Part shown: piece after piece, positions 33,083 through 56,402 of the stretch
How positions within the stretch are numbered: position 1 is the stretch's first letter
Layout of the letters: each line of letters starts with the position of its first letter
Virus record (IMG/VR): IMGVR_UViG_3300042866_000779
Coordinates: 1-61,391 of that record
DNA length: 61,391 bases
Source: a virus
Lineage: Duplodnaviria > Caudoviricetes
Strand: one strand, 5' to 3'
The notes under the pieces: generated by a model
The model's input: the letters and a program-made list of their open reading frames with translations, nothing else
Database searches by the model: none
What the model was told of the DNA's origin: nothing
Program-made: the position numbers and the translations under genes

Positions 33083-34314
33083 GCGAGTAGGGCCGTTCGT
33101 AGGCTGGGATTGGTGGCACCAGTCTTGAAGTTCATGTCCTTGATGTCATGCAAGCCGTCTTTCCCGGCGGCATCAATGATCTCTTGCAGCTTCTCCATTG
33201 CCTTGTCGTAGCCGTGGGCGGGCTGGTCGAACTGCCGGTGGCCCGGGAGGTTGATCATGGGATCGGCACCCGTGGCCTCGTAATGCCGGACGTAATCAAT
33301 GAAGTTGTCCGCTGTGTTCTTGTTGAGCCCGATGTCCCGCATTCCCGGGTTGACCGTTTCGGTCTGACGCTTCAGGTGAAACATCAGGTTGCTCAACTCT
33401 GTCCCGTTGCTGCCCAGATAGGCGGATTTGGGGCCAAGCTCCCGCTGCCTGTCAGTTACGGCTGGGCGAAGAGCTTGAAACTGCCGCCACTTATGGGATG
33501 GATTGACACCATCAAGGATTGAATGGATTGCTTCATGCTGACCGACATTGAAGCCGTCCCTGTCCATGCCGCGACCGACCGTGTACGGGTCCATGAAAGC
33601 ATTGTGGTAAAGCTGCTTGTTGATCGCAGAAGCGAACCCCTGACCACCGTCCATATTGGCAAAGCTCTCGGGGGTTAGCCCTCGGAACATGAGCCACTTA
33701 CGCTTCCATTCCTTTTCAAGGTCGCCTAGGTGGTACACGGCAGCATCGTCGCCCATGCCGTCCGTACCGTCCGGGTGGTTCCTGTCCCTGATTCTGGTGA
33801 GTACACGGTCGCTCTGGGCCCGGTCACCAGTGATCCCGTCGAGCAACCTCCACGGGGAGGTGCGGGTGACTGCCGTGTCCATGCTGTGCCCCATTGCCTC
33901 AGGGGCGCGGCTATCCAGCCCTGCGGCAGTGCTGAGATAACCTTTGTACCGCACCGTTGGGGCACTTCCGGTGAGGGTGTTGTTCAGCTTGTTCGTGTAG
34001 TTATGGTTCTGGGTGAGATCGTCCCAGATAACGTCGTTTGCCAAACGCGCCGCCCTGCCAGTTCCAGTGTTCTCCACGGCATCCGTTGTGGCCCCAAACG
34101 GCATCAGCGGCCACGAACCGTAATCCTTCGTGTCCTGAATGTGCTGTTGGGTGCCAGCAATGGTGTGGGCATCCGCTTTCTGGATGTTGGCGGGATGCGG
34201 CGTAAGCCCGCTGCCAAAGGCACCCTCAAGATTGGCCCGCCGAATAGAGCGGGCAGCATCATCGGGAATGCGGTACGGGAGGGCCCCCACCAGCTTCCTG
34301 ATCATCTCTGCCAT
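33079..34314 (-). CDS. Hypothetical protein with HExxH (zincin-like) motif
   Basis: VGQHEAIHSIL...E; GGAGG SD. Confidence 0.55.
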   Translation of the reverse strand: MAEMIRKLVGALPYRIPDDAARSIRRANLEGAFGSGLTPHPANIQKADAHTIAGTQQHIQDTKDYGSWPLMPFGATTDAVENTGTGRAARLANDVIWDDLTQNHNYTNKLNNTLTGSAPTVRYKGYLSTAAGLDSRAPEAMGHSMDTAVTRTSPWRLLDGITGDRAQSDRVLTRIRDRNHPDGTDGMGDDAAVYHLGDLEKEWKRKWLMFRGLTPESFANMDGGQGFASAINKQLYHNAFMDPYTVGRGMDRDGFNVGQHEAIHSILDGVNPSHKWRQFQALRPAVTDRQRELGPKSAYLGSNGTELSNLMFHLKRQTETVNPGMRDIGLNKNTADNFIDYVRHYEATGADPMINLPGHRQFDQPAHGYDKAMEKLQEIIDAAGKDGLHDIKDMNFKTGATNPSLRTALLA

Positions 34315-34332
34315 CAGACTCGCCCTCCGAAA

Positions 34333-34476
34333 CTACTTTTGATTGCGCTCACGCCACTCTTTCCAACGGAACGCAAGCTCGGCAATCCCACCTACGAGCG
34401 CAACGCCACCAATGACAAAAGCGAGGTAGCACACCATCGCGTATGTCAGGTCAACGGCAAAGCGGGCAGGGTCCAT
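34333..34476 (-). CDS. Small single-TM protein (47 aa, MDPARFAVDLTYAMVCYLAFVIGG...)
   Basis: Read manually; ATG 4 nt after late motif copy 3. Confidence 0.6.
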   Translation of the reverse strand: MDPARFAVDLTYAMVCYLAFVIGGVALVGGIAELAFRWKEWRERNQK

Positions 34477-34480
34477 GCCC

Positions 34481-34493
34481 TATTTATGTCCCG
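34481..34493 (-). promoter_or_regulatory. Putative late promoter motif CGGGACATAAATA, copy 3
   Basis: At the head of the whole late arm. Confidence 0.6.
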
Positions 34494-34696
34494 GCTGGCG
34501 GATTTTGCTCCGCTTCCTTGGCCTTGCGATTGGCCCGGTACTGCCTCATGTAAGCCGCCTTCTGATCCTTGAAAGCCTTGTAGGCAAGAGGGTCCTGCTT
34601 CAGCACCCGGCGACGTTCGTGATAGCCACGGCGACCGGACTCTCGGTCAGCATCAGTGTTGATAGCGAGATAGGCAGCGGACCTGTGCAAAGGCAT
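34484..34696 (-). CDS. Small basic hypothetical protein
   Basis: GGAG SD; Arg/Lys-rich. Confidence 0.5.
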   Translation of the reverse strand: MPLHRSAAYLAINTDADRESGRRGYHERRRVLKQDPLAYKAFKDQKAAYMRQYRANRKAKEAEQNPPAGT

Positions 34697-34859
34697 GGGG
34701 AATCTCCATGAGGGGGAAGACGAACCTACGTTGATTACAAGCACCCTCAGGGAGGCGGGCAATCCTTTGATCGCGTAACTATTGCCCGCCGCGTAACTCA
34801 TGCAGATAATGCGGTTTCAGGCTGAGTTAGTTCACTTCGCTGTATATGGGGACACAGAC

Positions 34860-35006
34860 ATGATTTCCCCAGAGGAGCGGGCCGCACTCCTAGCAGCGTT
34901 CGATGACCCCGTGCCCCTCCACGATCACCCCTTCATCAAAGCCCTCCAAGAGAGACTGCCATGCACCCTAGTCAAAGAACTGCCCCAAAAGGAGAAACCC
35001 CAGTGA
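34860..35006 (+). CDS. Small hypothetical protein
   Basis: GGGGA SD; coupled to the next ORF. Confidence 0.5.
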   Translation: MISPEERAALLAAFDDPVPLHDHPFIKALQERLPCTLVKELPQKEKPQ

Positions 35007-35272
35007 ATGATCCAGTGGCATGGGCCGTGACTATTGGCCCGCCTGACGATGTGTCGGTGTACGAGGCTTATGCAGCCCATCAGAAGGAAGAGGCAGTAGC
35101 AATGGCCGATGAGTGCAGGTTTGGCGACAAGGACAAGCCGCTGCCTCTGGCTCCGCTCTACTTCCAGCCCACCCTCACCGAAGAGGAGCAGGAGGCGGTT
35201 GCCGTTGCGATTGTGGGTTCGCTTCCGGGTCGCGCCGCCACGCTCCGCAAACTCTTGGAGAGGATGAAATGA
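35003..35272 (+). CDS. Hypothetical protein (PVAW...PLY, TLTEEEQEAV motifs)
   Basis: AGGAG SD; GTGA overlap. Confidence 0.65.
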   Translation: MNDPVAWAVTIGPPDDVSVYEAYAAHQKEEAVAMADECRFGDKDKPLPLAPLYFQPTLTEEEQEAVAVAIVGSLPGRAATLRKLLERMK

Positions 35273-35792
35273 CGGCTTTCTGTCAGAGCGTGACGGGAAA
35301 CGGTCAGGACTGTGACGGGAAACTGGCAAGTAACCAACATTCCCAAAGTTGGAAAAGTTTCAGGGGGTGAACTAACAGATATACGCTCACACGCGGGGGG
35401 GGCTCACGGGGCCCGCATGAGCCCGCACAGGCCCGCGATTCTTCGCCCGCCCGCCCCTAGCCGCGACCGCCCGCAGCCCCGCAGAACCGCAGCCACGGCC
35501 CCACACGGGCATTCCCGGGCATGGGCATGGCGTGGCAGTCCCGGTTGGCCCTTGGAACCGAGGGCCAACCTCCCCCATTTCTGGGGGTTTTTCGGCTGAC
35601 CTTCACCATCTTCACCACTTTGGTGATGATTGGCAGTGGCCTTGGTGATGATCGGTTTTCGGCGGCTTCCGGCGGTCTGGTCTGGCCTTGCTTGCGCGGT
35701 TCCTTGCACGGGCTGCGCGTTTGCGGTCATGGGCCCGCGCTGTCTTCCCCGCCCTCGCGTGTGCGCTGTCTTTCGTGTGTGTGTGCGCCCGG

Positions 35793-35821
35793 AATCCCCG
35801 GAGGGGATTTTGAGCCTCTGG
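35793..35821 (+). promoter_or_regulatory. GGA-triloop hairpin + AGCCTCTGG element 1
   Basis: AATCCCC-GGA-GGGGATT-TT-GAGCCTCTGG. Confidence 0.85.
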
Positions 35822-35880
35822 TTGTTGTCGGCAACGGCCAGTGTGGTCGATGCGGCACAGCACACTCAGGGAGCAACGTC

Positions 35881-36084
35881 ATGCACACAGTCGAGCAGTA
35901 CGTCAACGGGGAGTTCTTGGTGGCGGCATGGTTCACCGACATTCAGGACGCATATGAGTTCGCCAACAACATCGACGGGCTGGTCATTCCGAAGGAAATG
36001 ACCGACGAGGGGGCGATTGCCAACCGGCGGCTGGATTTCATGGAGGCCGCTTGCGGGTGGTTCTGTGCGGCTGACGAGCGGTGA
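35881..36084 (+). CDS. Early hypothetical protein
   Basis: CACAC-AGGGAG leader then ATG. Confidence 0.7.
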   Translation: MHTVEQYVNGEFLVAAWFTDIQDAYEFANNIDGLVIPKEMTDEGAIANRRLDFMEAACGWFCAADER

Positions 36085-36101
36085 GCCTCACACACACGCT
36101 G

Positions 36102-36130
36102 AGTCAGGGGACCTGACTTTGAGCCTCTGG
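36102..36130 (+). promoter_or_regulatory. GGA-triloop hairpin + AGCCTCTGG element 2
   Basis: AGTCAGG-GGA-CCTGACT-TT-GAGCCTCTGG. Confidence 0.85.
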
Positions 36131-36136
36131 TTGGTG

Positions 36137-36182
36137 GCGGTGGCTGATCGGCAGCCTGACGGGTTCGATGCCCGTTCACCGC
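36137..36182 (+). ncRNA. tRNA-like mini element 1 (acceptor-like stem, D-like arm, T arm; no anticodon arm)
   Basis: GCGGTG/CACCGC; GCTG-ATCGG-CAGC; GACGGG-TTCGATG-CCCGTT. Confidence 0.7.
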
Positions 36183-36222
36183 ACTGGTTCGATTGTTCGA
36201 TTCACACACTGAGGGTGCTGAC

Positions 36223-36474
36223 ATGACAACGGCTGAATTCAAGGCGGAAATGCGGGTTGAGCGTGAGGAACTGTGCGTCGAATGGGGCTTCGCCAACCGA
36301 TTCACGGCGATGATCTTCCAGTGGGTCTGCGACGATTTCAACCGGATCGACTACCCGGACCTTGACGAGGCTTCCGAGGCCATTCGGGAGTACGTCATCC
36401 ATGTGAAGAAAGTGCCTGCCTACCGGGTGCGGCACGTTGACTTCCACGAGATTGCACTGTGCCTGCGAGGCTAG
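36223..36474 (+). CDS. Early hypothetical protein
   Basis: CACAC-GAGGG leader; stop abuts hammerhead 1. Confidence 0.75.
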   Translation: MTTAEFKAEMRVEREELCVEWGFANRFTAMIFQWVCDDFNRIDYPDLDEASEAIREYVIHVKKVPAYRVRHVDFHEIALCLRG

Positions 36475-36525
36475 GCCGAAACCGGGGAAACCCGGTCGCA
36501 CCGTAATGCGGTGCCTGACGAGGCC
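36474..36525 (+). ncRNA. Type II hammerhead ribozyme 1 (predicted cleavage after C36497)
   Basis: GGCC-GAAA-CCGGG(GAAA)CCCGG-TC-GCACCG(TAATG)CGGTGC-CTGACGA-GGCC. Confidence 0.93.
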
Positions 36526-36562
36526 GTTCGTCCCCCTGATTGGTCGATGGGGTAACTCGACT

Positions 36563-36600
36563 GCCTCCCGGTGGACGTTCCATCGGGGGGCTTTTCTTTT
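36563..36600 (+). terminator. Intrinsic terminator-like hairpin + U tract upstream of ORF 36623
   Basis: GCCTCCCGGTGGA/TCCATCGGGGGGC then TTTTCTTTT. Confidence 0.55.
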
Positions 36601-36622
36601 CTTCACGCGAAGGATCACACCC

Positions 36623-36892
36623 ATGCTGGTGCCTGACTACAACCAGATGATCGACGTTTTCCCGGGCGAAACCTATGAGGTTCTCATGCCCTATTCCGAA
36701 GTGTGTATGCACATGGGAATCGCGGGGACCGTTCGACGGATTCTGGTCCGCGAAGCGGGGCGGGGCGTTTACCTGCTGAACGATGACCTGACAACGGGCC
36801 CGCACATGACGAGCGGCGAGGCCGGGATTCTGGGTTGCTCACACAGCCACCCATACACCTACGGGTTCAAGTACCAGTCCCCCCGTGCGTAA
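36623..36892 (+). CDS. Early hypothetical protein
   Basis: AAGGA SD; ATG at 36623. Confidence 0.7.
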   Translation: MLVPDYNQMIDVFPGETYEVLMPYSEVCMHMGIAGTVRRILVREAGRGVYLLNDDLTTGPHMTSGEAGILGCSHSHPYTYGFKYQSPRA

Positions 36893-36919
36893 CCAACGGA
36901 GTTGGTTTTGAGCCTCTGG
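36891..36919 (+). promoter_or_regulatory. GGA-triloop hairpin + AGCCTCTGG element 3
   Basis: AACCAAC-GGA-GTTGGTT-TT-GAGCCTCTGG. Confidence 0.85.
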
Positions 36920-36924
36920 ATGGC

Positions 36925-36974
36925 AGCGGTTGGCTGACGGAAGCCACACCCCGGTTCGACTCCGGGGAACCGCT
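36925..36974 (+). ncRNA. tRNA-like mini element 2
   Basis: AGCGGTT/AACCGCT; GGCT-GACGGA-AGCC; CCCCGG-TTCGACT-CCGGGG. Confidence 0.75.
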
Positions 36975-37011
36975 CTGGGTTCGGGTTCGATCACACACAA
37001 GGGGCACCATC

Positions 37012-37221
37012 ATGCTGGGCGAATATCCCGTGGCGGTTCGTGACGCGGTGACTGAGGCGAGGGCGACGAAAGAAACCCGCTATGTGATCCAGATGGATCA
37101 CGGCGACGGGCGGGCTTTCACATTCTGCGACGAGCAGTATCTCGACGGGCCGGAATACAACGCTTTCGACGGTGTTGTATGGGCGACCGTCTTCCCCGAT
37201 GGGGAAATCTGCCGGGAGTAA
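37012..37221 (+). CDS. Early hypothetical protein
   Basis: CACACACAAGGGG leader; stop just before hammerhead 2. Confidence 0.7.
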   Translation: MLGEYPVAVRDAVTEARATKETRYVIQMDHGDGRAFTFCDEQYLDGPEYNAFDGVVWATVFPDGEICRE

Positions 37222-37224
37222 CCA

Positions 37225-37276
37225 AGCCGAAACCGGGGCAACCCGGTCTGCCAGTAACGCTGGCACTGACGAGGCT
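37225..37276 (+). ncRNA. Type II hammerhead ribozyme 2 (predicted cleavage after C37248)
   Basis: AGCC-GAAA-CCGGG(GCAA)CCCGG-TC-TGCCAG(TAACG)CTGGCA-CTGACGA-GGCT. Confidence 0.93.
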
Positions 37277-37301
37277 ACACACTCACAACGGGAGCCATTC
37301 A

Positions 37302-37658
37302 ATGGCACAGCAATTGGACGAATTCACGCGGCAATTTCTGGAAACCGCACTGTGGTCTTCGACGGACTTGGAAACCGACAAGCCGCTGGATGACACGCAT
37401 GACATCGAAGACTTTGCCCCCGCTACGTTGGCGGAACTGGTCGCGGATTGCAAGGCTTTTCAGGCCGACAACGCTGCCGACATTGCCGCCGATCCGATCC
37501 GGGCTGGACACGATTTCTGGCTGACGCGGTGCGGCCACGGGGCGGGCTTTTGGGATGGCGACTGGCCGCACGACGCTGGAAAGCGACTGACGGCAGCGTC
37601 CAAGGTCTACGGCAACGTGGACTTGTATGTGGGTGATGACGGGCTCGTGTATGCGTAA
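37302..37658 (+). CDS. Phage early hypothetical protein (GHDFWLTRCGHGAGFWD motif)
   Basis: GGAG SD; motif I recognise from other phage hypothetical proteins. Confidence 0.8.
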   Translation: MAQQLDEFTRQFLETALWSSTDLETDKPLDDTHDIEDFAPATLAELVADCKAFQADNAADIAADPIRAGHDFWLTRCGHGAGFWDGDWPHDAGKRLTAASKVYGNVDLYVGDDGLVYA

Positions 37659-37685
37659 TCAACGGAGTTGATTCTGAGCCTCTGG
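37657..37685 (+). promoter_or_regulatory. GGA-triloop hairpin + AGCCTCTGG element 4
   Basis: AATCAAC-GGA-GTTGATT-CT-GAGCCTCTGG. Confidence 0.85.
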
Positions 37686-37690
37686 TATTC

Positions 37691-37739
37691 GACGGTTGTG
37701 GTTCGGCCACCGTCCGGGGTTCGATGCCCCGGAACCGTC
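37691..37739 (+). ncRNA. tRNA-like mini element 3
   Basis: GACGGTT/AACCGTC; GTGG-TTCGG-CCAC; CCGGGG-TTCGATG-CCCCGG. Confidence 0.75.
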
Positions 37740-37773
37740 CTGTGTTCGATTGCCCACACTTGGAGACACGACG

Positions 37774-38169
37774 ATGCACACGCCAAACATTCCGCAGAAA
37801 ACTCTCCCGCACCAGTTCATGGTGTGCGATGACGGCACCCTGAATAGGGTGGTCAAAGTCGATGGGGGGCTGTCGCTGGTGGAGGTCCGGGGGAATTACA
37901 AGCGGCACCACCGGGAAATCAAGACGGTGGCTGACCTGAAAGCCTGCCTGCGGGCTGGGAAATACGCATGGCCCGGTGGCTATGCCTGCTACTTCATCAC
38001 CTCTGACGGTGCAGTCCTGTCCTTTGAGGCAGTGCGGCGAGAGTTTGCGGTGGTCGCCTATGCGGTGAAGGCCCACCACAACAGCGGCTGGCGGGTGGTG
38101 GGGCTGGGATGCACCGCAGAGGATGACGAGGCCCCGGTCTGCGACCACACCGGCAAGGAAATCGACTGA
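37774..38169 (+). CDS. Phage hypothetical protein (YAWPGGY motif)
   Basis: GGAG SD; AWPGGY...DG...CDH motif. Confidence 0.75.
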   Translation: MHTPNIPQKTLPHQFMVCDDGTLNRVVKVDGGLSLVEVRGNYKRHHREIKTVADLKACLRAGKYAWPGGYACYFITSDGAVLSFEAVRREFAVVAYAVKAHHNSGWRVVGLGCTAEDDEAPVCDHTGKEID

Positions 38170-38239
38170 CGGCATCCAACCACCCCGCTCTGCGGAGCGG
38201 GGACATTGGGGATCGTTGGTTACACACACGAAAGGGGGC

Positions 38240-38437
38240 ATGGATTTTATGAACACGGGATCAGTGGTTTTTCTGGCCCTCTTGTTCGTCTGGTTTTTTG
38301 GCGACTGGTTCTATAGGGATGGGCTGGCAAACGGGTTTTACAACTTAGCCAGCTTTGGGTTTTGGGTTTTCTTTTTTGGCCCCCTCTGGTGGGTCGGATG
38401 GATTGCTGTAGCACACGCCATCATTCACACGTTTTGA
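38240..38437 (+). CDS. Small aromatic-rich membrane protein
   Basis: Two hydrophobic segments; AAAGGGGG SD; start 38240 or 38249. Confidence 0.6.
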   Translation: MDFMNTGSVVFLALLFVWFFGDWFYRDGLANGFYNLASFGFWVFFFGPLWWVGWIAVAHAIIHTF

Positions 38438-38458
38438 CACACACGAAAGGGATCGACC

Positions 38459-38851
38459 ATGAAATTCGACCGGAAATTCAACAAGTATGTTTGCGTTGGG
38501 GACACGATCAAGGCAGACATCACCGACAAGTTGCAACTCGTTGCCACTCTCGTCTTCGACGGCGACTGCAACCCGCAAAACGAGGGCTGGTATGACGAAG
38601 CCGACGTTGAGCGGTGGAAGAATGACGAGTGGCATTTCGTGGGGGTTGTGCTGTCCGTTCAATCGCACGACGGCACGATCAACAAACAACTCGGCTCCCT
38701 CTGGGGAAACGAGGCCAACCTCAGGGAAGACAACGACCACTTGACGGACGTTGCCAACGAGTTGATTGACGAGCGGGAAATCGTGGCCGCACTGCGGGAG
38801 ATTTACGAGCCCGTAACCCGGGCGATTAATACTCTCACACGCACAGCCTAA
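38459..38851 (+). CDS. Early hypothetical protein
   Basis: ACACACACGAAAGGGA leader. Confidence 0.75.
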   Translation: MKFDRKFNKYVCVGDTIKADITDKLQLVATLVFDGDCNPQNEGWYDEADVERWKNDEWHFVGVVLSVQSHDGTINKQLGSLWGNEANLREDNDHLTDVANELIDEREIVAALREIYEPVTRAINTLTRTA

Positions 38852-38874
38852 CGGAGTTAGGCACGAGCCTCTGG
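38846..38874 (+). promoter_or_regulatory. GGA-triloop hairpin + AGCCTCTGG element 5
   Basis: GCCTAAC-GGA-GTTAGGC-AC-GAGCCTCTGG. Confidence 0.85.
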
Positions 38875-38894
38875 TTGGTATCGGTTGGATGACG

Positions 38895-38926
38895 GCCCCG
38901 GCAATTTCGCCGGGGCTTTTCTTTTT
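38895..38926 (+). terminator. Terminator-like hairpin in the leader of ORF 38951
   Basis: GCCCCGGC-AATTTC-GCCGGGGC-TTTTCTTTTT. Confidence 0.6.
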
Positions 38927-38950
38927 CACACACACAAGGGGACCGCAACG

Positions 38951-39325
38951 ATGGCAAGCGACAACTACACCGAGAACATGGCCGACATTTTCGAGTGCCC
39001 CCGGGAAAGGCGGATGGTGCTGGAAATCCTGAAGGCATGGGAGTCCGGCGGGCTGCCGAAGGACTTCGATGACAGGGGCGTGAAGCTGGCGTTCAACCGC
39101 AGTAGCGGCAACGTCTTCCTCGTCAACGAGGAATATCAGGTGGCAATGGTGGAGGGGCTCTGTCTGGAGTCCTTCTACTCCAGCCCATACGAGGGCAAGG
39201 AGGGGTTCTTCACGGACCTGCTCTCCGAATACCCGGATATGCACCGCGAGGATCAGGAGTGGTTCCGCGACATCGCAGAGGCGACCGGCAAGGAGGACTT
39301 GCTGCCCGCCTTGGATGACGAGTGA
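38951..39325 (+). CDS. Acidic phage hypothetical protein
   Basis: FNRSSGNVFLVNEEYQVAM motif; stop just before hammerhead 3. Confidence 0.75.
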   Translation: MASDNYTENMADIFECPRERRMVLEILKAWESGGLPKDFDDRGVKLAFNRSSGNVFLVNEEYQVAMVEGLCLESFYSSPYEGKEGFFTDLLSEYPDMHREDQEWFRDIAEATGKEDLLPALDDE

Positions 39326-39327
39326 CA

Positions 39328-39381
39328 GGGCGAAACCCGGGGCAACCCGGGTCTGGCAGTGACGCTGCCACTGATGAGCCC
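39328..39381 (+). ncRNA. Type II hammerhead ribozyme 3 (predicted cleavage after C39353)
   Basis: GGGC-GAAA-CCCGGG(GCAA)CCCGGG-TC-TGGCAG(TGACG)CTGCCA-CTGATGA-GCCC. Confidence 0.94.
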
Positions 39382-39400
39382 ATTACACAAGAGGTGACCG

Positions 39401-39646
39401 ATGACGAACGAGGACAAAGCCAAGCTGTTCCGCATCGTGCGGGACCGACTGAACTGCGGGAAGGTTTGGGGCAAGCGGAAGCACGTTGAGTCCGCGATCT
39501 TCGACGCCCACAACGGCAGGCCCGATGGGTTGCTGGTGACCAACGAGAATATGTACCTGTTCCGGCAGTACCGGAACGGGGTGTCGCCGTCGCCTGCCAA
39601 GCTGGTGAACGAGGCACTGGCATGGAAGGAAGGAGGTGCAGCATGA
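39401..39646 (+). CDS. Early hypothetical protein
   Basis: GAGGTG SD. Confidence 0.7.
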   Translation: MTNEDKAKLFRIVRDRLNCGKVWGKRKHVESAIFDAHNGRPDGLLVTNENMYLFRQYRNGVSPSPAKLVNEALAWKEGGAA

Positions 39647-40104
39647 AGCGGTATCAGGTGCGGTTCCACCTTGGGAAAGGTGAGAACCACGGGAAATGGC
39701 AGGTTAAGAGCATGGCAGGGGTGCGGTACTACGATCCCGCTGCCGTGAGCCTGACCCTGTTGGATTGCCAACTGCGGAATCAACCCGCGACGGCAAAGAA
39801 GGTCTATGAAGGTGCGAACAAGTCGGTCTGTGCGTGGATCGACTGCAATGAGGTGCTGGTCGAGGGGCCAAGCACCCCGACAGGATTGCCGGTGTCCTAC
39901 AACCCCCGGATTGCACCGCACTGGCGGAGCTTTTGCGGGGAGAACATCGACGGCAAGGGGTTCAACTTGCTGCGGTCCAACTGGATTCAGCTTGTCTACA
40001 CGGGAGAGCGGACGATCACGGTCGGCGGTCTGGTGCAGCTTGCACCACCGGCTGATGAGCGGGAGGAAGAACTGCGGATGACCCGCATGAGGAGGGAGCG
40101 ATGA
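39643..40104 (+). CDS. Early hypothetical protein
   Basis: AGGAGGT SD; ATGA overlap. Confidence 0.75.
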   Translation: MKRYQVRFHLGKGENHGKWQVKSMAGVRYYDPAAVSLTLLDCQLRNQPATAKKVYEGANKSVCAWIDCNEVLVEGPSTPTGLPVSYNPRIAPHWRSFCGENIDGKGFNLLRSNWIQLVYTGERTITVGGLVQLAPPADEREEELRMTRMRRER

Positions 40105-40334
40105 GCCACACCACGACGATGATGGACATGACCCGGGGTGAGCTTTCCATCCTTGCCACCGCTCTTGAGAGAGAGTGGCAGCGGACTGGCAAGCTGTGGA
40201 CCGATGGTAACCGGGACGGTTGGTATGACGAGAAGGCGAAGGAGCGGGTGGCCGTCCACCTGCATGAGACTGAGCGGCTTTTCAACAAGGTCAACACACG
40301 CATCAAGGAGATTGACAATGGCAGTGCCACATGA
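40101..40334 (+). CDS. Hypothetical protein
   Basis: GGAG SD; ATGA overlap. Confidence 0.65.
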   Translation: MSHTTTMMDMTRGELSILATALEREWQRTGKLWTDGNRDGWYDEKAKERVAVHLHETERLFNKVNTRIKEIDNGSAT

Positions 40335-40596
40335 CAGACCCACGTTCGATCAGATCATGCACTCGCTCAAGGTTTCTGGCGAGTGCGGCGACGTTCTTTG
40401 CACCCATGCGGCAGAGGAAATTGAGCGGCTTCAGGCTTTGGCAGGGGCTGCCCCTGAGTTGCTGGCTGCGGCAAACGAACTGCTTGCCAACGCCACGCGG
40501 TTTGGGTTTGTGGGCGAGGATTACTCCGCACTGCCTGTCATTCATGAAGCAGTCGTGAGGCTGTCAAAGGCTTGCCGGAAGGCAGAAGGGGGGTGA
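40318..40596 (+). CDS. Hypothetical protein (AAPELLAA motif)
   Basis: AAGGAG SD. Confidence 0.7.
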   Translation: MAVPHDRPTFDQIMHSLKVSGECGDVLCTHAAEEIERLQALAGAAPELLAAANELLANATRFGFVGEDYSALPVIHEAVVRLSKACRKAEGG

Positions 40597-40621
40597 CGCA
40601 TGAACTGGTAACGCACACACG

Positions 40622-40650
40622 GCTCTTCGGAGAAGAGTTTTAGCCTCTGG
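40622..40650 (+). promoter_or_regulatory. GGA-triloop hairpin + AGCCTCTGG element 6
   Basis: GCTCTTC-GGA-GAAGAGT-TT-TAGCCTCTGG. Confidence 0.85.
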
Positions 40651-40660
40651 TTGGTATCTG

Positions 40661-40693
40661 ACCCCCGGCAATTTCGCTGGGGGTTTTCTTTTT
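40661..40693 (+). terminator. Terminator-like hairpin in the leader of ORF 40712
   Basis: ACCCCCGGC-AATTTC-GCTGGGGGT-TTTCTTTTT; near-copy of 38895. Confidence 0.6.
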
Positions 40694-40711
40694 GACACAA
40701 GGGGATTCGAC

Positions 40712-41125
40712 ATGGCGACGAGCGACATCATTTCGGCAGTGGCGGCTGGCCAGACTGTGACCAAGGCCAAGCGGGTTGGACGGGGCAAGGCTGCGGTCGA
40801 GGTGACCATCACCCGGACGGCACCTGAGGTGAAGGTGGTGGACGAGACAGTGAAGGAGGAGCCGGTCAGCTACAGCAACAAGCTGCCGGTGGACGAGGGC
40901 AAGGTGAGGACCGACATCCTCCCGGGCCTTGCTCTGATCCGGTACTCCCGGGGTTATTCGGTGCTGGAGCAGAAGGGAAAGACCTACAGCGGGGCGAAGA
41001 CCAAGCTGCGACGGGTGCTGTACCGCGAGGACCTGATTGCCACTGCCAACGCTTTGCTGGCCGAAGCGGAGGGGGCCCTGTCCTATGACGAGGCCCACGG
41101 CAATGCGGATGCCGTGCCCTTCTAG
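40712..41125 (+). CDS. Early hypothetical protein
   Basis: ACACAAGGGGA leader; stop abuts hammerhead 4. Confidence 0.75.
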   Translation: MATSDIISAVAAGQTVTKAKRVGRGKAAVEVTITRTAPEVKVVDETVKEEPVSYSNKLPVDEGKVRTDILPGLALIRYSRGYSVLEQKGKTYSGAKTKLRRVLYREDLIATANALLAEAEGALSYDEAHGNADAVPF

Positions 41126-41179
41126 TCCGAAACCGGGAGCCCTGCCCGGTCTGGCCGTGATGCGGCCACTGATGAGGAC
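41125..41179 (+). ncRNA. Type II hammerhead ribozyme 4 (predicted cleavage after C41151)
   Basis: GTCC-GAAA-CCGGG(AGCCCTG)CCCGG-TC-TGGCCG(TGATG)CGGCCA-CTGATGA-GGAC. Confidence 0.93.
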
Positions 41180-41201
41180 ACATTCACACAGGAGCCATTC
41201 A

Positions 41202-41819
41202 ATGGCAACGACAACGAGCATCTTGAGCGACACGATCATGGCACAGGCGAAGGCTTTCAAGGAGGCCCGGTCGCGGTTCGATGAGCAGTTCATGGACTGG
41301 TCCCGGGGCATCCCGCCTCTGGCACCGGAACACTTCTGGCCGATGGTCGATGAGTTCCGCAAGGTGGTGGTGGACACCAGCCGGTACGGGACTGGCCCGG
41401 TGGGTGAGGCGGCGGCGAATGAGTTCATCCGGCTGGCTGCGGTGAACGGCGGCGACATTGCTGCGGCTGTCCACTTCGCCCTGTCGTGGCGGCACTACAC
41501 CCGAAGGGCATCTGCCTGCGGCGACAAGTGCGAGTTCGACTGGATGCGTGGCGACGATAGCTACGGTGACCTGATGGATGCCCTGCCCCTTGCTGGCCAG
41601 CGTGTCAACGAAACGCTGGGGCTGGGCAAGTTCGATTCGCTGAACCACTTCAACAAAGAGGTGGGCAATGCCTGCGAATGGGCAGCGGAGGGTGAAGATC
41701 GCAGCAGGCTGAAGAAGATGGTGCTGTCTGGCGAGAGCTACTTCGCATCCTCTCTTGAGGAGGCAGCACAGAAGTGGGTGGTGATTGAGTCCCGCAACTA
41801 CGGAAAGGGAGGTGAGTGA
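41202..41819 (+). CDS. Early hypothetical protein
   Basis: AGGAG SD; ATG at 41202. Confidence 0.75.
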   Translation: MATTTSILSDTIMAQAKAFKEARSRFDEQFMDWSRGIPPLAPEHFWPMVDEFRKVVVDTSRYGTGPVGEAAANEFIRLAAVNGGDIAAAVHFALSWRHYTRRASACGDKCEFDWMRGDDSYGDLMDALPLAGQRVNETLGLGKFDSLNHFNKEVGNACEWAAEGEDRSRLKKMVLSGESYFASSLEEAAQKWVVIESRNYGKGGE

Positions 41820-42046
41820 TGGCCAAGAAGAAGCACCACCCCGACTACGATCCCGAAGTCGAGGCGGGTTCCGTGTACCTACAGAAAGAGGTGGCAGTGC
41901 AGTTGATGCTGGCGATTGGGTACTCGCTCAAGCACAACAAGGGGATGGACAAGCTGGACGAGCAGCGGTTGTTAGTGGCGGGGACAGTGATCAACAACGT
42001 GTTCGCATTGATTCCCCCACCCAAGAAGAAAGCGAGGAGCAAGTGA
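41819..42046 (+). CDS. Hypothetical protein
   Basis: GGAGGTG SD; TGATG overlap. Confidence 0.7.
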   Translation: MAKKKHHPDYDPEVEAGSVYLQKEVAVQLMLAIGYSLKHNKGMDKLDEQRLLVAGTVINNVFALIPPPKKKARSK

Positions 42047-42357
42047 GGACAACGATGACTCTGGTGCTGGCACTGGTAGCTGGCACCACGTTCGGTCAGT
42101 ACCCCTACGTCCAACCGGGATGGGGGTACTGGAACAAGGCGGAAGCCATGCGACAGCAAGCATGGCAGAACCAACAGTGGCAGCGGGATCAGTGGCAGCG
42201 TGAGCGTGACTACCTGTGGGGTGGTGACTCTCTCGACTACGGGCAGCGGGCAGCCAACCTTCGCAAGACAAAGGAGGAAGCGAGGTCGCTGCGATTGCAG
42301 AACGACAGGATGGAAAGCCAAGGCAACCCATACCTGAACAATCCGTTTGAACGATAG
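42043..42357 (+). CDS. Secreted Q/W-rich hypothetical protein
   Basis: Signal-like MTLVLALVAGTTFG; GAGGA SD. Confidence 0.6.
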   Translation: MRTTMTLVLALVAGTTFGQYPYVQPGWGYWNKAEAMRQQAWQNQQWQRDQWQRERDYLWGGDSLDYGQRAANLRKTKEEARSLRLQNDRMESQGNPYLNNPFER

Positions 42358-42358
42358 C

Positions 42359-42387
42359 TTGACGATGTACGCATGTATATGTAGACT
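42359..42387 (+). promoter_or_regulatory. Sigma-70-type promoter TTGACG-N17-TAGACT with an imperfect palindrome in the spacer
   Basis: Near-consensus -35/-10 with a 17 bp spacer; TGTAC-N4-GTATA at 42366-42379. Confidence 0.7.
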
Positions 42388-42397
42388 CACGGGCACA

Positions 42398-42426
42398 AGG
42401 TAACGGAGTTACCTCTAAGCCTCTGG
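42398..42426 (+). promoter_or_regulatory. GGA-triloop hairpin + AGCCTCTGG element 7
   Basis: AGGTAAC-GGA-GTTACCT-CT-AAGCCTCTGG. Confidence 0.85.
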
Positions 42427-42511
42427 TTAGTAGCAGCAACAACAAGGACAGACCCCGGCAGCCACTTCGGCTGACCGGGGTTTGTTCGTTTACCCCCAAA
42501 GGAAATGTGCA

Positions 42512-43381
42512 ATGACCCCCCTCAACGGTTCGATTGTCGAGCGTGTCCGTAACTTCTTCCCCGATGTGACCAAGCAGGTCTTGTACTCGGGTGACATGAA
42601 GCCGACTCCCCACATGGGCCTGTTCCGCAATGACACGGGAGCTTGCTTCGGTCCTGCGGTCAGTGCCAACTACGAGCTTCACACCACCGATGACATCTGT
42701 GCCTTGGTGGAGGCGAGTGAGCCAGTGCTGGGTGAGTGCGGCGACGTTCAGTTGGGCTTCAGAGATGGTCACTATGTGTCCATCCAGCCCACCAAGGACC
42801 ACCTGATTACCGTTCACAAGAACGACACGGTGTTCCCCCGGCTGATCGTCACGGCCCGGTACGGGCAGGCTTTCACCGCCACCATCGGGTTGTTCCGGGT
42901 GGTGTGCGGCAACCTCGCCATCTTCCAGAAGGTGGCGGGCACTTCGGTGCGGATCAGGCACACCTACTCCCTTCGCTCCAAGATGGAGGACCTCATTGAG
43001 GACTTCCACTCCCTGCGGAGCGGGGTGGGCAACCTTGAGGTAGCCATCAAGGAGATGGCTGACCGCAGGGTGCGGCTGGCTGACTTCCTTGACGGCATCT
43101 ACGGCACCCCGGACGAGGGTGCTACGGAGCGGTCGATCACCATGCACCGCAACCGGACGGAGCAGATTGTCCGGCGGCTGATGCGGGAGCAGGTGGCACT
43201 CGGTGAGCAGACCCAACTCAACGAGGTCAGTGCGTGGGCTGCGTTCAATGCGGTACAGGGATTCATCCAGCATGACTCCCGCCGCAAGGGCAAGCCGGGT
43301 GATTTCGACCGGGCCATCATGGCTCTGACGGACCCGAAGGTTCTTCAGGCCCAGCACTTGGCTCTGACGATGGCGGTCTAG
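42512..43381 (+). CDS. DUF932/DUF945-like phage/plasmid protein
   Basis: LFRNDTG..FG.VS.NY; LFRVVCGN; IRHT; SAWAAFNAVQGFIQH. Confidence 0.75.
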   Translation: MTPLNGSIVERVRNFFPDVTKQVLYSGDMKPTPHMGLFRNDTGACFGPAVSANYELHTTDDICALVEASEPVLGECGDVQLGFRDGHYVSIQPTKDHLITVHKNDTVFPRLIVTARYGQAFTATIGLFRVVCGNLAIFQKVAGTSVRIRHTYSLRSKMEDLIEDFHSLRSGVGNLEVAIKEMADRRVRLADFLDGIYGTPDEGATERSITMHRNRTEQIVRRLMREQVALGEQTQLNEVSAWAAFNAVQGFIQHDSRRKGKPGDFDRAIMALTDPKVLQAQHLALTMAV

Positions 43382-43453
43382 TTCATCGGGGGAAGGGGCG
43401 GCGGCTGGCTCGTTGCTGGTCGCCGCCCCGCCCTATTTCAAGGGAGATGAAAC

Positions 43454-43798
43454 ATGGCGAAGTATGAGTTCACCACTGCGGCTGGTAATCGCATTGTTGA
43501 GAAGTGCCTGACGCTTAACAAGGAGAAGTGCTTTGGCTGCATCCCGTATGAGTACGTCGATCAGTACCTGCGGGACGAGGACTATCGCAGTGAGTACGCA
43601 GTGACAAAGTTTGTGGAGTGGCTGAAGGTCAACTCCAAGAGCAGTTCGTCTGCTGTGAAAGTGCTGGGATTGGTGGCTTGCGGCATGGCAGACGAGTTAG
43701 TCCGCGACAAGAGCTTCATCGGCAATGTGGAATCCTTCCACGCTGCCATGACGCATCGGTTCGGAGTGCATGAATCCAACGTAGTGAAAGAGGGGTAG
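43454..43798 (+). CDS. Hypothetical protein
   Basis: GGGAG SD. Confidence 0.7.
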   Translation: MAKYEFTTAAGNRIVEKCLTLNKEKCFGCIPYEYVDQYLRDEDYRSEYAVTKFVEWLKVNSKSSSSAVKVLGLVACGMADELVRDKSFIGNVESFHAAMTHRFGVHESNVVKEG

Positions 43799-43803
43799 TA
43801 ACC

Positions 43804-44121
43804 ATGCAACCACTCATCAGGCTTGATAGCTACCGGGTTAGTGAGCGGGTTGTCCTTCGTAAGGGCACCCGGTTTCGTGCGACGGGAGGACCGCTGTTCC
43901 GGCTGGCCAGTGGGGAGGAGGTGAAATTGGGAGCGAAGGGTCCCTTCACCTTCCTCGCCTTCACCAAGCGTGGATCATGCGAGGTGATCGAAGCACTCGA
44001 CAAGGATGGATCGTTTGTGCCCATGCACATCAAGGGCAGAAGGAGAAAAGTGACCGGCGAGATTGTGACCAAACCGTACCAGATCAAAGGCACCATCAGA
44101 AAGAAAGGCAGAGTTCGATGA
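43804..44121 (+). CDS. Basic hypothetical protein
   Basis: GAGGGG SD. Confidence 0.7.
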   Translation: MQPLIRLDSYRVSERVVLRKGTRFRATGGPLFRLASGEEVKLGAKGPFTFLAFTKRGSCEVIEALDKDGSFVPMHIKGRRRKVTGEIVTKPYQIKGTIRKKGRVR

Positions 44122-45213: not shown

Positions 45214-45450
45214 ATGCCCAACACCGCAGTAGAATTGACCGAGAGACAGGAAGAAATCCTGCGTTACGTTGCCAGCCATGTCGAACTGAATGGGTTCCAA
45301 CCCAGCTTCAGGGAGATGATGGATCGGTTCAAGATCAGGAGCCTGAACGGAATCACCTGCCACCTCAAGGCTATGGAGAGGAAGGGTGTCATCCAGTGTA
45401 ACTTCAATACCTCCCGTGCAATCTCGTTCAACTGGAAGGAGTGGCTATGA
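45214..45450 (+). CDS. Stand-alone LexA-type winged-helix DNA-binding domain (no peptidase domain)
   Basis: LTERQEEILRYV...GFQPSFREM...SLNGITCHLKAMERKGVI. Confidence 0.85.
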   Translation: MPNTAVELTERQEEILRYVASHVELNGFQPSFREMMDRFKIRSLNGITCHLKAMERKGVIQCNFNTSRAISFNWKEWL

Positions 45451-46283
45451 AGGCATACATCTACACCCGTGTCTCAACTGTGGATCAGAACCTGACCCCG
45501 GAGTGGCAGGCCAGCGTGTGCCAGACCTACTACGAGACAAGCCTTAAAGACAAAGGCTATGAACTGGCTGGTGTGTTCCATGACCACGGTGTGTCAGCTT
45601 GGAAAATCAACTGGCGTGACAGGCCAAAGGGCAGGGAGTTGTTCAACTTGGTCAAGCCGGGGGACATCATCATTGCCCCCAAGCAAGACCGTGTGTTTCG
45701 TTCAGCCCGGGACAAAGAGAACACCATCCACTACCTTCAGCAAGTGGGGATCGACATTGCGATTCTTGACGCAATGCTGGACACCACTACCGCACCGGGC
45801 AGGTTTGCCGCCCGCATCATCGCAGCGGGGTGCGAGTTTGAGAGTGACACCAAAAGCGAGAGGCAGAAGGCTGCCCACTCTGTTCGGAAGATTCACAAGT
45901 TGCCCATGAAGAAACGCCCACCGGCTGGGTGGAAGTGGGACCGGGCGATTGATGAACTGGTCCCAGACTGGGACGAGCGGCGATTGCTGGCCATGATCTA
46001 TGACCTGAGGGATCGCGGCATTCAGACAGTCGCTGGCTCTGCCCGCACCCTCAAGGACAACGGGGTCAAGCGTGACTGCGGCTACGGCTACAACAAGGCG
46101 TGGCTGTGCCGTGCATACGGCAGCTTCTTGAGGAACTTCCCCCCGGAAGGATTCACCAAGTCCCGTGGCAACACCAAGGTGGCAGTGAAAGCTGGGCGGG
46201 TTAGGTCCTCTTTGTCTCGTGCTGAACGCGAGAGAATCCTGCGCTCGACCGAAGTCGCCCCAGTTTTGCGGCCATCAACTTAG
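45447..46283 (+). CDS. Serine recombinase (resolvase family)
   Basis: YIYTRVSTVDQ; DHGVSA; RPKG; DRVFRS; EFESDTKSER. Confidence 0.9.
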   Translation: MKAYIYTRVSTVDQNLTPEWQASVCQTYYETSLKDKGYELAGVFHDHGVSAWKINWRDRPKGRELFNLVKPGDIIIAPKQDRVFRSARDKENTIHYLQQVGIDIAILDAMLDTTTAPGRFAARIIAAGCEFESDTKSERQKAAHSVRKIHKLPMKKRPPAGWKWDRAIDELVPDWDERRLLAMIYDLRDRGIQTVAGSARTLKDNGVKRDCGYGYNKAWLCRAYGSFLRNFPPEGFTKSRGNTKVAVKAGRVRSSLSRAERERILRSTEVAPVLRPST

Positions 46284-55556: not shown

Positions 55557-56402
55557 ATGCCACTGACTTCGATTGTTGATGAGTACGTTGATAGCCGTGA
55601 CCTGTGCCACAACTACAGACGGCATCTGATGCGAACTGCTGAAAGCATGGCATCATTTGGCATAACCTCCGTGGCCGACTTGACTCCTCAACGGGTCACC
55701 CGTTGGCTCGACTCTCTGGCCTGTTCAAGGGCCACGAAGTCGAACTACCGGAGGCAAGCACTGACGATAATTCGTGCAGCACTTGGCCCCGGTTGTGCGA
55801 ATTTTATCGAAGGTGTTCGGCGTGTCAAGTATTCGGTTCCACCTCCAGTTGCGTGGTCGGAAAAAGAATTGGAGAGGTTGCTGGCGGCTGCCGACAGCAT
55901 GAAGAGAACGCTTGCTTCAGGTTGCCCAGCCTCCCTGTTTTTTCGTGCGTGGATATTGACGGGCTACTTCACAGGTCTGAGATTTTCGGACGAGCTACAC
56001 CTGAAGGTGAGCCAGCTTCGCGGCGACCGGCTGCACCATGTCATCAGTAAGACATCGCAGCCCTACGTCAAGGTGTTGAACCAAGAGGTGGTCGATCTCC
56101 TGAGGCAACTGGCGGAACACCCCGCCAACGTGGACGGCAAGACGTTCTTCTCTTGGGCACTGAAGGAACACTGGCTGCGGGTCTGGTTCCGCCGCCTCTG
56201 CAAGCAGGCCGGTCTGGAGGGCACACCCAAGTGGCTGAGAAGGAGCGGGGCCACGGCTTGCGAGGCTCAGAGTCCCGGGTCAGCCAGCCGCTACCTCGCG
56301 CACCGATCCCCGGAATTGGCCCTCAAATACTACGTCGATGCCAGCTTGCTGCCGGATGCCATGCCCACCCCGCCACGGCTACAGCATAAAAGGGTTTCCT
56401 AG
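55557..56402 (+). CDS. Tyrosine recombinase/integrase
   Basis: TGLRFSDE; K; KWLRRSGAT; LAH; KYY; AGGAGG SD. Confidence 0.88.
   Translation: MPLTSIVDEYVDSRDLCHNYRRHLMRTAESMASFGITSVADLTPQRVTRWLDSLACSRATKSNYRRQALTIIRAALGPGCANFIEGVRRVKYSVPPPVAWSEKELERLLAAADSMKRTLASGCPASLFFRAWILTGYFTGLRFSDELHLKVSQLRGDRLHHVISKTSQPYVKVLNQEVVDLLRQLAEHPANVDGKTFFSWALKEHWLRVWFRRLCKQAGLEGTPKWLRRSGATACEAQSPGSASRYLAHRSPELALKYYVDASLLPDAMPTPPRLQHKRVS

Follow-up and report, generated by a model that had tools for sequence, protein, structure and literature searches.

The DNA considered here is IMG/VR virus record IMGVR_UViG_3300042866_000779, analysed at its full length of 61,391 nt (the window); it is the genome of a complete tailed phage, contained in one record with direct terminal repeats, with an estimated completeness of 100% and a G+C content of 59%. 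Large genes on its minus strand match phage portal, large terminase, tail, and tail-fibre families as well as a DNA helicase, and ERF and PDDEXK-like recombination domains occur among the phage proteins. Small open reading frames (ORFs) on the plus strand, for which family matches are almost nil, are packed at approximately 35.5–46.5 kb, with a gene for a serine recombinase at the end of the block; the region from approximately 35.8 to 46.5 kb is best explained as an accessory or early gene block. It is here that four type II hammerhead ribozymes are found, all on the plus strand and within 4.7 kb, flanking one to five genes each and placed precisely at gene junctions (Table 1). They probably serve in the processing of mRNA, in that the operon of accessory genes would be cut during its transcription into single-gene messages capped by hairpins.

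Table 1. Elements and genes of the plus-strand block (positions are those of the window)
Feature	Position (nt)	Strand	Remarks
Hammerhead 1	36474–36525	+	Predicted cleavage after C36497; begins on the final base of the TAG that closes the gene at 36223–36474
Hammerhead 2	37225–37276	+	Predicted cleavage after C37248; 3 nt past the TAA of the gene at 37012–37221; next start 37302
Hammerhead 3	39328–39381	+	Predicted cleavage after C39353; 2 nt past the TGA of the gene at 38951–39325; next start 39401
Hammerhead 4	41125–41179	+	Predicted cleavage after C41151; begins on the final base of the TAG that closes the gene at 40712–41125; next start 41202
Gene upstream of hammerhead 1	36223–36474	+	83 aa; matches no family
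Gene upstream of hammerhead 2	37012–37221	+	69 aa; matches no family
Gene downstream of hammerhead 2	37302–37658	+	118 aa; phrog_1915 (of unknown function)
Gene upstream of hammerhead 3	38951–39325	+	124 aa; protein of the relative L234 97% identical
Gene downstream of hammerhead 3	39401–39646	+	81 aa
Gene upstream of hammerhead 4	40712–41125	+	137 aa
Gene downstream of hammerhead 4	41202–41819	+	205 aa
Terminator-like hairpin	36563–36591, to 36600 with T-run	+	13 pairs, 9 G-C; 38 nt past hammerhead 1; between hammerheads 1 and 2
Terminator-like hairpin	38894–38917, to 38927 with T-run	+	9 pairs, 8 G-C; between hammerheads 2 and 3
Terminator-like hairpin	40660–40685, to 40695 with T-run	+	10 pairs, 7 G-C; between hammerheads 3 and 4
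Seven-copy repeat	35787–35833, 36096–36142, 36885–36931, 37651–37697, 38839–38886, 40615–40662, 42391–42438	+	Intergenic
tRNA-like minihelices	~36136–36183, 36925–36974, 37691–37739	+	Right after the repeats at 36096, 36885, and 37651
Serine recombinase gene	45441–46283	+	End of the plus-strand ORF block

A descriptor demanding CUGANGA, GAAA, an A15.1–U16.1 pair, a base other than G at position 17, and at least four, three, and four pairs in stems I, II, and III, respectively, was run over both strands of the window and matched exactly four times, always on the plus strand; 200 dinucleotide-preserving shuffles gave two matches. These are the four sites at 36474, 37225, 39328, and 41125 which a first-pass annotation of the same DNA had proposed, and the scan arrives at the same predicted cleavage positions and the same lengths of the fragments between them (751, 2,105, and 1,798 nt). 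A looser descriptor (stems of 3, 3, and 5 pairs) returns the same four and one odd motif on the minus strand, with no match in 100 shuffles. At all four sites, the elements run from one strand of stem II through GAAA, the capped stem III, UC, the capped stem I, and CUGA(C/U)GA to the other strand of stem II; this is the type II permutation in which stems I and III each end in a loop and stem II is open. The catalytic core is complete in each copy, with G10.1–C11.1, A15.1–U16.1, and C17 at the cleavage site. The stems vary around this core without loss of pairing, exactly as the annotation had read them: stem II is GGCC/GGCC, AGCC/GGCT, GGGC/GCCC, and GTCC/GGAC at sites 1–4, stem I is GCACCG, TGCCAG, TGGCAG, and TGGCCG with exact complements, and loop I (TAATG, TAACG, TGACG, and TGATG) conforms to TRAYG throughout. 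The observation of four type II hammerheads is far beyond chance.

A covariance model (R1) was trained on sites 1, 2, and 4 only, because hammerhead 3 had been misaligned by MAFFT; it detects the left-out hammerhead 3 with a score of 63.9 bits, followed within the window by matches of 21.2 and 19.7 bits, and hammerhead 1, which is itself a training sequence, scores 79.9 bits. The first of the two lesser matches, at 41059–41095 on the plus strand, lies inside the ORF at 40712–41125 and 66 nt before hammerhead 4; this partial hammerhead-like stretch was rejected as a ribozyme, for its stem II strands match but GAAG and AUGACGA take the place of the core and there is no stem I, and it may be due to chance or be a relic. 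The second is the minus-strand motif, located at 43814–43876 antisense to the start of a plus-strand ORF. Its GAAA, CUGAUGA, and a GUA cleavage triplet are intact, stem III has 7 bp and a loop of approximately 30 nt, and stems I and II have only 3 bp each, the loop of stem I measuring 4 nt; no counterpart is present in L234, a 63.6-kb IMG/VR relative of the phage. It may be a degenerate or atypical hammerhead copy.

That each hammerhead starts at or just after a stop codon, as had also been stated in the first-pass annotation, holds at every site: the upstream stop codons end at 36474, 37221, 39325, and 41125, leaving gaps to the ribozyme of −1, +3, +2, and −1 nt, and the next start codon, preceded by a Shine-Dalgarno sequence, follows hammerheads 2–4 after 25, 19, and 22 nt. 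The same packing is seen in related sequences. Relatives were gathered by an exact pattern for the stem III subtype, which matched at least 117 IMG/VR contigs; a model search of 80 pattern-matched loci plus the window (771,703 nt) gave 170 matches at E ≤ 0.001, and the best 150 of these were analysed. Pairing is found in 97.5% of their cells, as compared to 68.6% in column shuffles and 28–46% with slid partners, and 14 of 16 pairs have changes on both sides, values which are to be read in the light of a fetching pattern that fixes stem III and of an alignment fitted to the model. The start of the hammerhead falls −4 to +10 nt from the stop of an ORF of at least 60 codons in 116 of the 150 (antisense control, 13 of 150), and an ORF of at least 50 codons starts, behind a Shine-Dalgarno sequence, 10–60 nt downstream, likewise in 116 of 150 (control, 6 of 150); the succession of stop codon, ribozyme, and start codon is, in this sample, a rule of the whole family. 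The four-copy cluster of the window is also typical of a widespread arrangement, as 31 of 74 IMG/VR loci hold two to eight hammerheads, in all 31 on one strand, at a median spacing of 644 nt.

Placed in this way, the ribozymes would act as follows. While RNA polymerase moves across the junction, the hammerhead would fold and cut itself between stem III and stem I, approximately 23–27 nt past the upstream stop codon and approximately 50 nt before the next start. The 3′ end of the upstream mRNA would then consist of the G+C-rich hairpin of stem III, a single base, and a 2′,3′-cyclic phosphate, while the downstream mRNA would carry a 5′-OH where its stem I hairpin begins, its leader continuing with CUGANGA, the freed stem II strand, a short unstructured CA-rich spacer, and the Shine-Dalgarno sequence up to the AUG. 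Neighbouring genes would be uncoupled by the cut and each message would be capped by hairpins and provided with a fixed leader independent of its context; message stability and translation could differ from gene to gene. The closed hairpins at both new ends would be a consequence of the type II order of helices. Terminal hairpins protect against 3′ exonucleases and against entry of RNase E or J that depends on the 5′ end, and they make a sturdier case for stabilisation than the 5′-OH alone, whose effect depends on the RNases of the host; the 5′-OH product of the glmS ribozyme, for one, is degraded by RNase J1 in Bacillus. The protection of downstream mRNAs by their 5′-OH ends, which the first-pass annotation had put forward, is thus plausible, but would vary with the host. 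Hammerheads 2 and 4 have the leader and a small hairpin bearing the AUG in common: the start codons at 37302 and 41202 are predicted to lie within a 5-bp hairpin GCCAU/AUGGC, and the translation-initiation region GGAGCCATTCAATGGC is identical at 37290–37306 and 41190–41206 of the plus strand.

The ribozyme and the downstream leader may, further, form a portable junction module that travels as one and is conserved while the flanking genes are exchanged, and part of this can be observed directly. Paralogy was assessed among the 150 hammerheads except for 10 lacking flanks of 300 nt, excluding same-locus pairs less than 720 nt apart. In the 27 paralogous pairs within a locus, homology begins at the 5′ end of the ribozyme, extending no more than 5 nt upstream in 21, and reaches 16–60 nt downstream in 16; pairs between loci mostly share the ribozyme alone, with homology of at most 5 nt upstream in 130 of 146 and of at most 5 nt downstream in 115 of 146. 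Among the genes flanking the hammerheads, no paralogy was found.

The comparison to L234 leads in the same direction. The two phages are 77–92% identical at the nucleotide level over much of the block, and for seven genes of the window (those at 37012, 37302, 37774, 38123, 39401, 40331, and 41819) no homologue is present in the 16-kb L234 locus; the junction elements between such non-homologous genes are 94–100% identical. The counterpart of hammerhead 1 (L234 5237–5288) differs in one base of loop I. Hammerhead 2 with its leader and ATGGC (37223–37306) is 100% identical over 84 nt, a stretch that begins just past the stop codon and takes in the first five bases of the next ORF, and the counterpart of hammerhead 3 (L234 7898–7994) keeps the core while having a 46-nt insert in the loop of stem III and a different, fully paired stem I. 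In four sets of metagenome DNA contigs compared at 80% likeness, which yield nothing but mosaic variants, homology breaks at 37306, 39341, and 41123, and one chimeric metagenome hammerhead combines the 5′ half of hammerhead 2 with another paired stem I; at this likeness, and with a side of 23 nt in one case, the joints may stem from other phages. Identity to L234 across swapped genes and the extent of homology in the paralogous pairs suggest that ribozyme plus downstream leader are the unit that is kept and copied.

It could be argued that such elements matter mainly as DNA, that is, as junction repeats for the homologous recombination of cassettes, RNA cleavage being secondary or neutral. In the hyperplastic regions of T4-type phages, promoter/stem-loop cassettes provide comparable recombination repeats, and the 84 nt shared with L234 between flanking genes that are non-homologous on both sides, the breaks of homology in the metagenome contigs, and the letter-identical core of stem III in at least 117 viral contigs would all be expected from it. 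Still, this scenario is unlikely, as recombination needs neither an intact 13-nt catalytic core nor compensatory changes in stems I and II, nor a strict strand and a strict placement between stop and start. What is shared between loci, mostly a ribozyme of approximately 50 nt with variable stems, is a poor recombination substrate, and the metagenome joints carry the reservations already given. Moreover, relatives of these hammerheads cleave in vitro and in vivo (PMC3088659, PMC8782182).

A number of observations weigh against processing of mRNA as the role of the four hammerheads, the first of which concern their recognition as such. Rfam, with its models for type II hammerheads, had been named in the first-pass annotation as a check, and its answer is divided: at gathering thresholds there is no hammerhead match in the window, and when E-value thresholds are used, RF02276 (Hammerhead_II) aligns with three of the sites at 32.3 (41125), 31.1 (37225), and 29.0 bits (39328), below its cut-off of 37, whereas the site at 36474 is absent even at E ≤ 10. 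These scores are not due to a defect of the core. The window copies share core, helix order, and open stem II with RF02276, and the alignments of the three sites span the full model (1–66); the model, however, expects a loop I of approximately 10 nt and a conserved 3′ tail for the pseudoknot, and the window copies have a loop of 5 nt and unrelated tails that are off the consensus.

The short loop raises a second difficulty. Complementarity between loop I and the tail was analysed in 142 parsed members (8 of the 150, without a stem I of at least four pairs, were left out). In the 62 with a long loop I (>5 nt), loop–tail pairing is 4.68 nt as compared to 3.48 ± 0.09 nt in shuffles, and 90% have at least 4 nt, a signal which matches the published pseudoknot. 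The 80 members with a short loop I, mostly of the form U-N-A-N-G, give 2.11 versus 2.03 ± 0.06 nt, which is no pairing signal. All four hammerheads of the window are of this class; their best loop–tail complementarity is 3, 1, 2, and 3 nt, with no pseudoknot, and a tertiary contact of the kind to which many type II hammerheads owe fast cleavage at low Mg2+ was not identified at these sites by loop–tail pairing. The U-N-A of the short loop would fit the pattern of a U-turn. The four belong to a short-loop, pseudoknot-less subclass of type II which is missed by the Rfam threshold.

Folding in the native context is a third point. In minimum-energy folds, stems I and III form at all four sites, while the open stem II of 4 bp is present only at hammerhead 2; in hammerheads 1, 3, and 4, the 5′-proximal strand of stem II is predicted to pair with the end of the upstream ORF instead. 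A conditional, down-regulating switch might be built on this: ribosomes terminating upstream would block folding, so that cleavage would report poor translation or timing and expose one of the products to decay. The stop codon is 0–3 nt from, or overlaps, the 5′ strand of stem II, and the footprint of a terminating ribosome covers such a distance; since a stem of 4 bp abuts the stop codon, folding is likely to be sensitive to ribosomes terminating upstream. The competition for stem II at three of the four sites in the predicted folds would add to this, and 5′-OH products are substrates for decay in hosts with RNase J. Regulation of this kind is nonetheless quite unlikely, because neither a sensor domain nor a second conserved fold was detected, and because both products would end in closed hairpins, favouring protection over decay.

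The remaining points concern single junctions and the extent of the transcript. Hammerhead 1 does not fit a simple leader model, as the next start is 97 nt away and beyond a terminator-like hairpin. In L234, the position of hammerhead 4 is occupied by an unrelated imperfect hairpin; the ribozyme must therefore be regarded as dispensable at that junction. The element in question (L234 9210–9275) is an imperfect long hairpin with a core of CTCCCGTG ... CACGGGAG, followed by a GGGGTTCGATG stretch, and is a natural replacement of the ribozyme by a plain structured spacer. Finally, the plus-strand block is split into segments by terminator-like hairpins, including those at 36563–36600 and 42464–42481, which may limit how far it is polycistronic. 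Antitermination or internal promoters must exist in the block; a scan for promoter consensus sequences yielded no excess (4 found, 3.6 expected). The hairpins at 38894–38927 and 40660–40695 are 92% identical to each other over 37 nt and read CCCCGGCAATTTCGC(C/T)GGGG plus T-run.

The terminator-like hairpins also bear on the suggestion of the first-pass annotation that circular mRNAs are possible, the fragments between ribozymes having ends which RtcB ligates; the joining could be done by RtcB of the host or by a reversal of the hammerhead reaction. The 5′-OH and 2′,3′-cyclic phosphate ends left by cleavage are, by established chemistry, substrates of RtcB (see PMC8782182), and three of four pairs would be possible across the joined ends between the stem II halves of hammerheads 1 and 2. 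As a strong terminator-like hairpin with a T-run is present in each of the three intervals, however, any RNA with two ribozyme-made ends would need read-through. For the intervals 37248–39353 and 39353–41151, the stem II halves mismatch next to the core, which disfavours end joining assisted by the ribozyme; in these mismatches, as in the unequal lengths of the intervals and the hairpins inside them, the window differs from viroid-like RNAs and retrozymes, and the irregular spacing and variable gene content of the family are likewise unlike the unit-length repeats of viroid-like circles. RtcB is not encoded by the phage (no match, with 10 of 14 control genomes positive), although the enzyme of the host could act. 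Perreault et al. considered circular or spliced products of such clusters and detected neither (PMC3088659). Circularisation is thus very improbable, and the suggestion finds little backing at this locus.

Processing at gene junctions thus remains the preferred reading, and the hammerheads may not be the only elements of the block involved in it. A repeat occurs there in seven intergenic copies, each consisting of a 6-bp hairpin with a GGA loop, a spacer of 3–4 nt, and (G/A)AGCCTCTGG(T/A)T; the seven stems are all different and all fully complementary. Every copy sits 66–99 nt before a gene start, and in four of the seven exactly one gene and then a hammerhead follow. A pseudoknot is conceivable between the loop, which reads (C)GGAG or (C)AGAG, and CUCU(G) of the motif. 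In L234, eight copies are present, and the base before CCTCTGG is C in all eight, where it is G in all seven copies of the window; a concerted change of loop and motif between the two phages was considered, but it fails across all copies, this base being the only consistent difference. A stretch at 38383 may be a copy of the repeat motif that lacks the hairpin. A model trained on 15 copies (seven from the window, eight from L234) finds just these and none in 80 other hammerhead loci or in L235–L237, and the repeat is therefore lineage-specific, not a general partner of hammerheads; the exact repeat pattern has no match in the retrieved hammerhead loci either. At least 116 single-copy matches of the exact pattern in viral contigs were judged consistent with chance for 14 specified bases and were not used. 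Visual inspection of the motif for a promoter of the sigma-70 or sigma-54 type led to this idea being abandoned, in line with the outcome of the consensus scan.

Three of the repeats are directly followed by tRNA-like minihelices, in which a hairpin whose TTCGA(T/C)N loop is invariant carries a stacked acceptor-like stem of 6–7 pairs and an extra hairpin is present. RNAalifold, applied to seven copies from the window and L234, finds 13 pairs, eight of which have changes on both sides. No tRNA was called by ARAGORN at the minihelices, and matches to mascRNA-like models of Rfam stay below threshold (22.7 bits in the window and 32.8 bits in L234; cut-off 42.5). The repeats at 38839, 40615, and 42391 lead instead into terminator-like hairpins, the stems of which resemble the T-arm-like hairpin. 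Candidate functions for the repeat are punctuation by RNase P/Z, a nut-like antitermination site, or a phage-specific promoter, and the minihelices are possible processing sites of RNase P/Z. As nearly every gene start between 35.8 and 42.5 kb that does not overlap another gene is preceded either by a hammerhead with leader or by a repeat element, one may tentatively go further and envisage a fully punctuated operon of portable hammerhead and tRNA-like (RNase P/Z) modules, conserved while the genes between them are swapped, a scenario we hold to be possible rather than probable. If it is true, self-processing RNA junctions would serve the hypervariable accessory region of a phage as plug-and-play sockets; the tRNA-like pieces would act as in mitochondrial transcripts or MALAT1/mascRNA, with the hammerheads as their protein-free equivalent.

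The genes around the ribozymes reveal little. Searches against PHROGs and Pfam yielded matches only to phrog_1915, phrog_18452, phrog_5644, L5 gp82 (below threshold), DUF932, and the serine recombinase. The DUF932 protein (42512–43381, plus strand; E 1.6e-17) is encoded directly 3′ of the last element made up of repeat and terminator. On conjugative plasmids, DUF932 is often encountered in the leading region, beside anti-restriction genes, and the protein fits an accessory or anti-defence role of the plus-strand block. The largest ORF (56379–60143, minus strand) encodes a protein of 1254 aa whose neighbours in the Atlas are viral proteins of 1117–1222 aa, none of them named; the nearest named Atlas cluster carries LPD38. 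A phage RNA polymerase was considered for this protein and found no backing, with no match in Pfam, PHROGs, or the PDB; another phage protein, of 834 aa, has no PDB match.

With respect to occurrence and host, DNA of the phage (36000–42600 of the window) is present in 24 listed sequencing runs, all of them lake-water or freshwater metagenomes and none of them an RNA run. The nearest cultured phages, as judged by tblastn with TerL, are Arthrobacter and Pelagibacter phages at 22–27% identity, which is no usable clue to the host. A TerL search of genome contigs found no relative, and a megablast of 34000–44000 against a phage database gave no match. The strict pattern of the short-loop hammerhead is found in three contigs of metagenome-assembled genomes, which are uninformative on the host.

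Cutting of a polycistronic RNA at gene junctions is a familiar principle: RNase III cuts the early mRNA of T7 in this way, and RiboJ is an engineered ribozyme insulator. The likeness of the window to both would lie in defined hairpin ends and in a leader independent of what is upstream; it is one of functional analogy only, as the cut in the window would be made by the RNA itself, without a host enzyme, and in a natural setting.

Hammerheads of the same type are known from bacteria and phages. Perreault et al. (2011; PMC3088659) describe type II hammerheads as common in bacteria and report clusters in prophages, as the first-pass annotation had rightly implied in calling hammerheads known from phages. 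In these clusters, several type II hammerheads on the same strand often flank single genes or short blocks of varying identity, and the role proposed there is the one favoured here, namely processing of long phage transcripts into single-gene mRNAs; three clusters cleaved in vitro and one in E. coli. The pseudoknot between loop I and the 3′ tail is a feature of most type II members and of approximately 40% of all hammerheads (PMC3088659), so that it is typical, not defining. The window differs from the clusters as described there in that its four hammerheads lack this pseudoknot and stay under the Rfam cut-off, and in that terminator hairpins and tRNA-like elements are also found in the operon; Figures 3 and S1–S5 of that paper may already contain type II members with a short loop, or adjacency to stop codons. 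In Desulfovibrio vulgaris, three type II hammerheads in the vicinity of phage-like genes were seen by cyPhyRNA-seq to cleave in vivo (Olzog et al. 2021; PMC8782182). These, too, are located beside hypothetical or phage-like genes, two of them close together; they also cleave during in vitro transcription, where the sites in the window are known from their sequence. Their host is cellular and cultivated, and they are likened to the window copies by their description in that report, not by sequence. A 2019 review (PMC6765202) and a 2026 paper (PMC13725137) still treat the biological role of phage and bacterial hammerheads as undefined, and a phrase search of the literature from 2012 on found no work on the function of type II hammerheads in phages. 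The arrangement and both earlier functional ideas are thus already in the literature, and the window is a clear new example, not a new system.

As such an example it is a clean natural test case, a complete phage with four ribozymes precisely placed between a stop codon and the next gene. Its value is increased by the contrast to L234, in which two of the ribozymes are nearly unchanged (one identical, one with a single loop base replaced), one is remodelled, and one is replaced by a hairpin. Short-loop, pseudoknot-less type II hammerheads that fall under the Rfam cut-off are overlooked by routine annotation. The unit repeated within genomes is the ribozyme plus its downstream leader, which indicates a role connected with the downstream gene; these junctions may be a natural counterpart of engineered ribozyme insulators.

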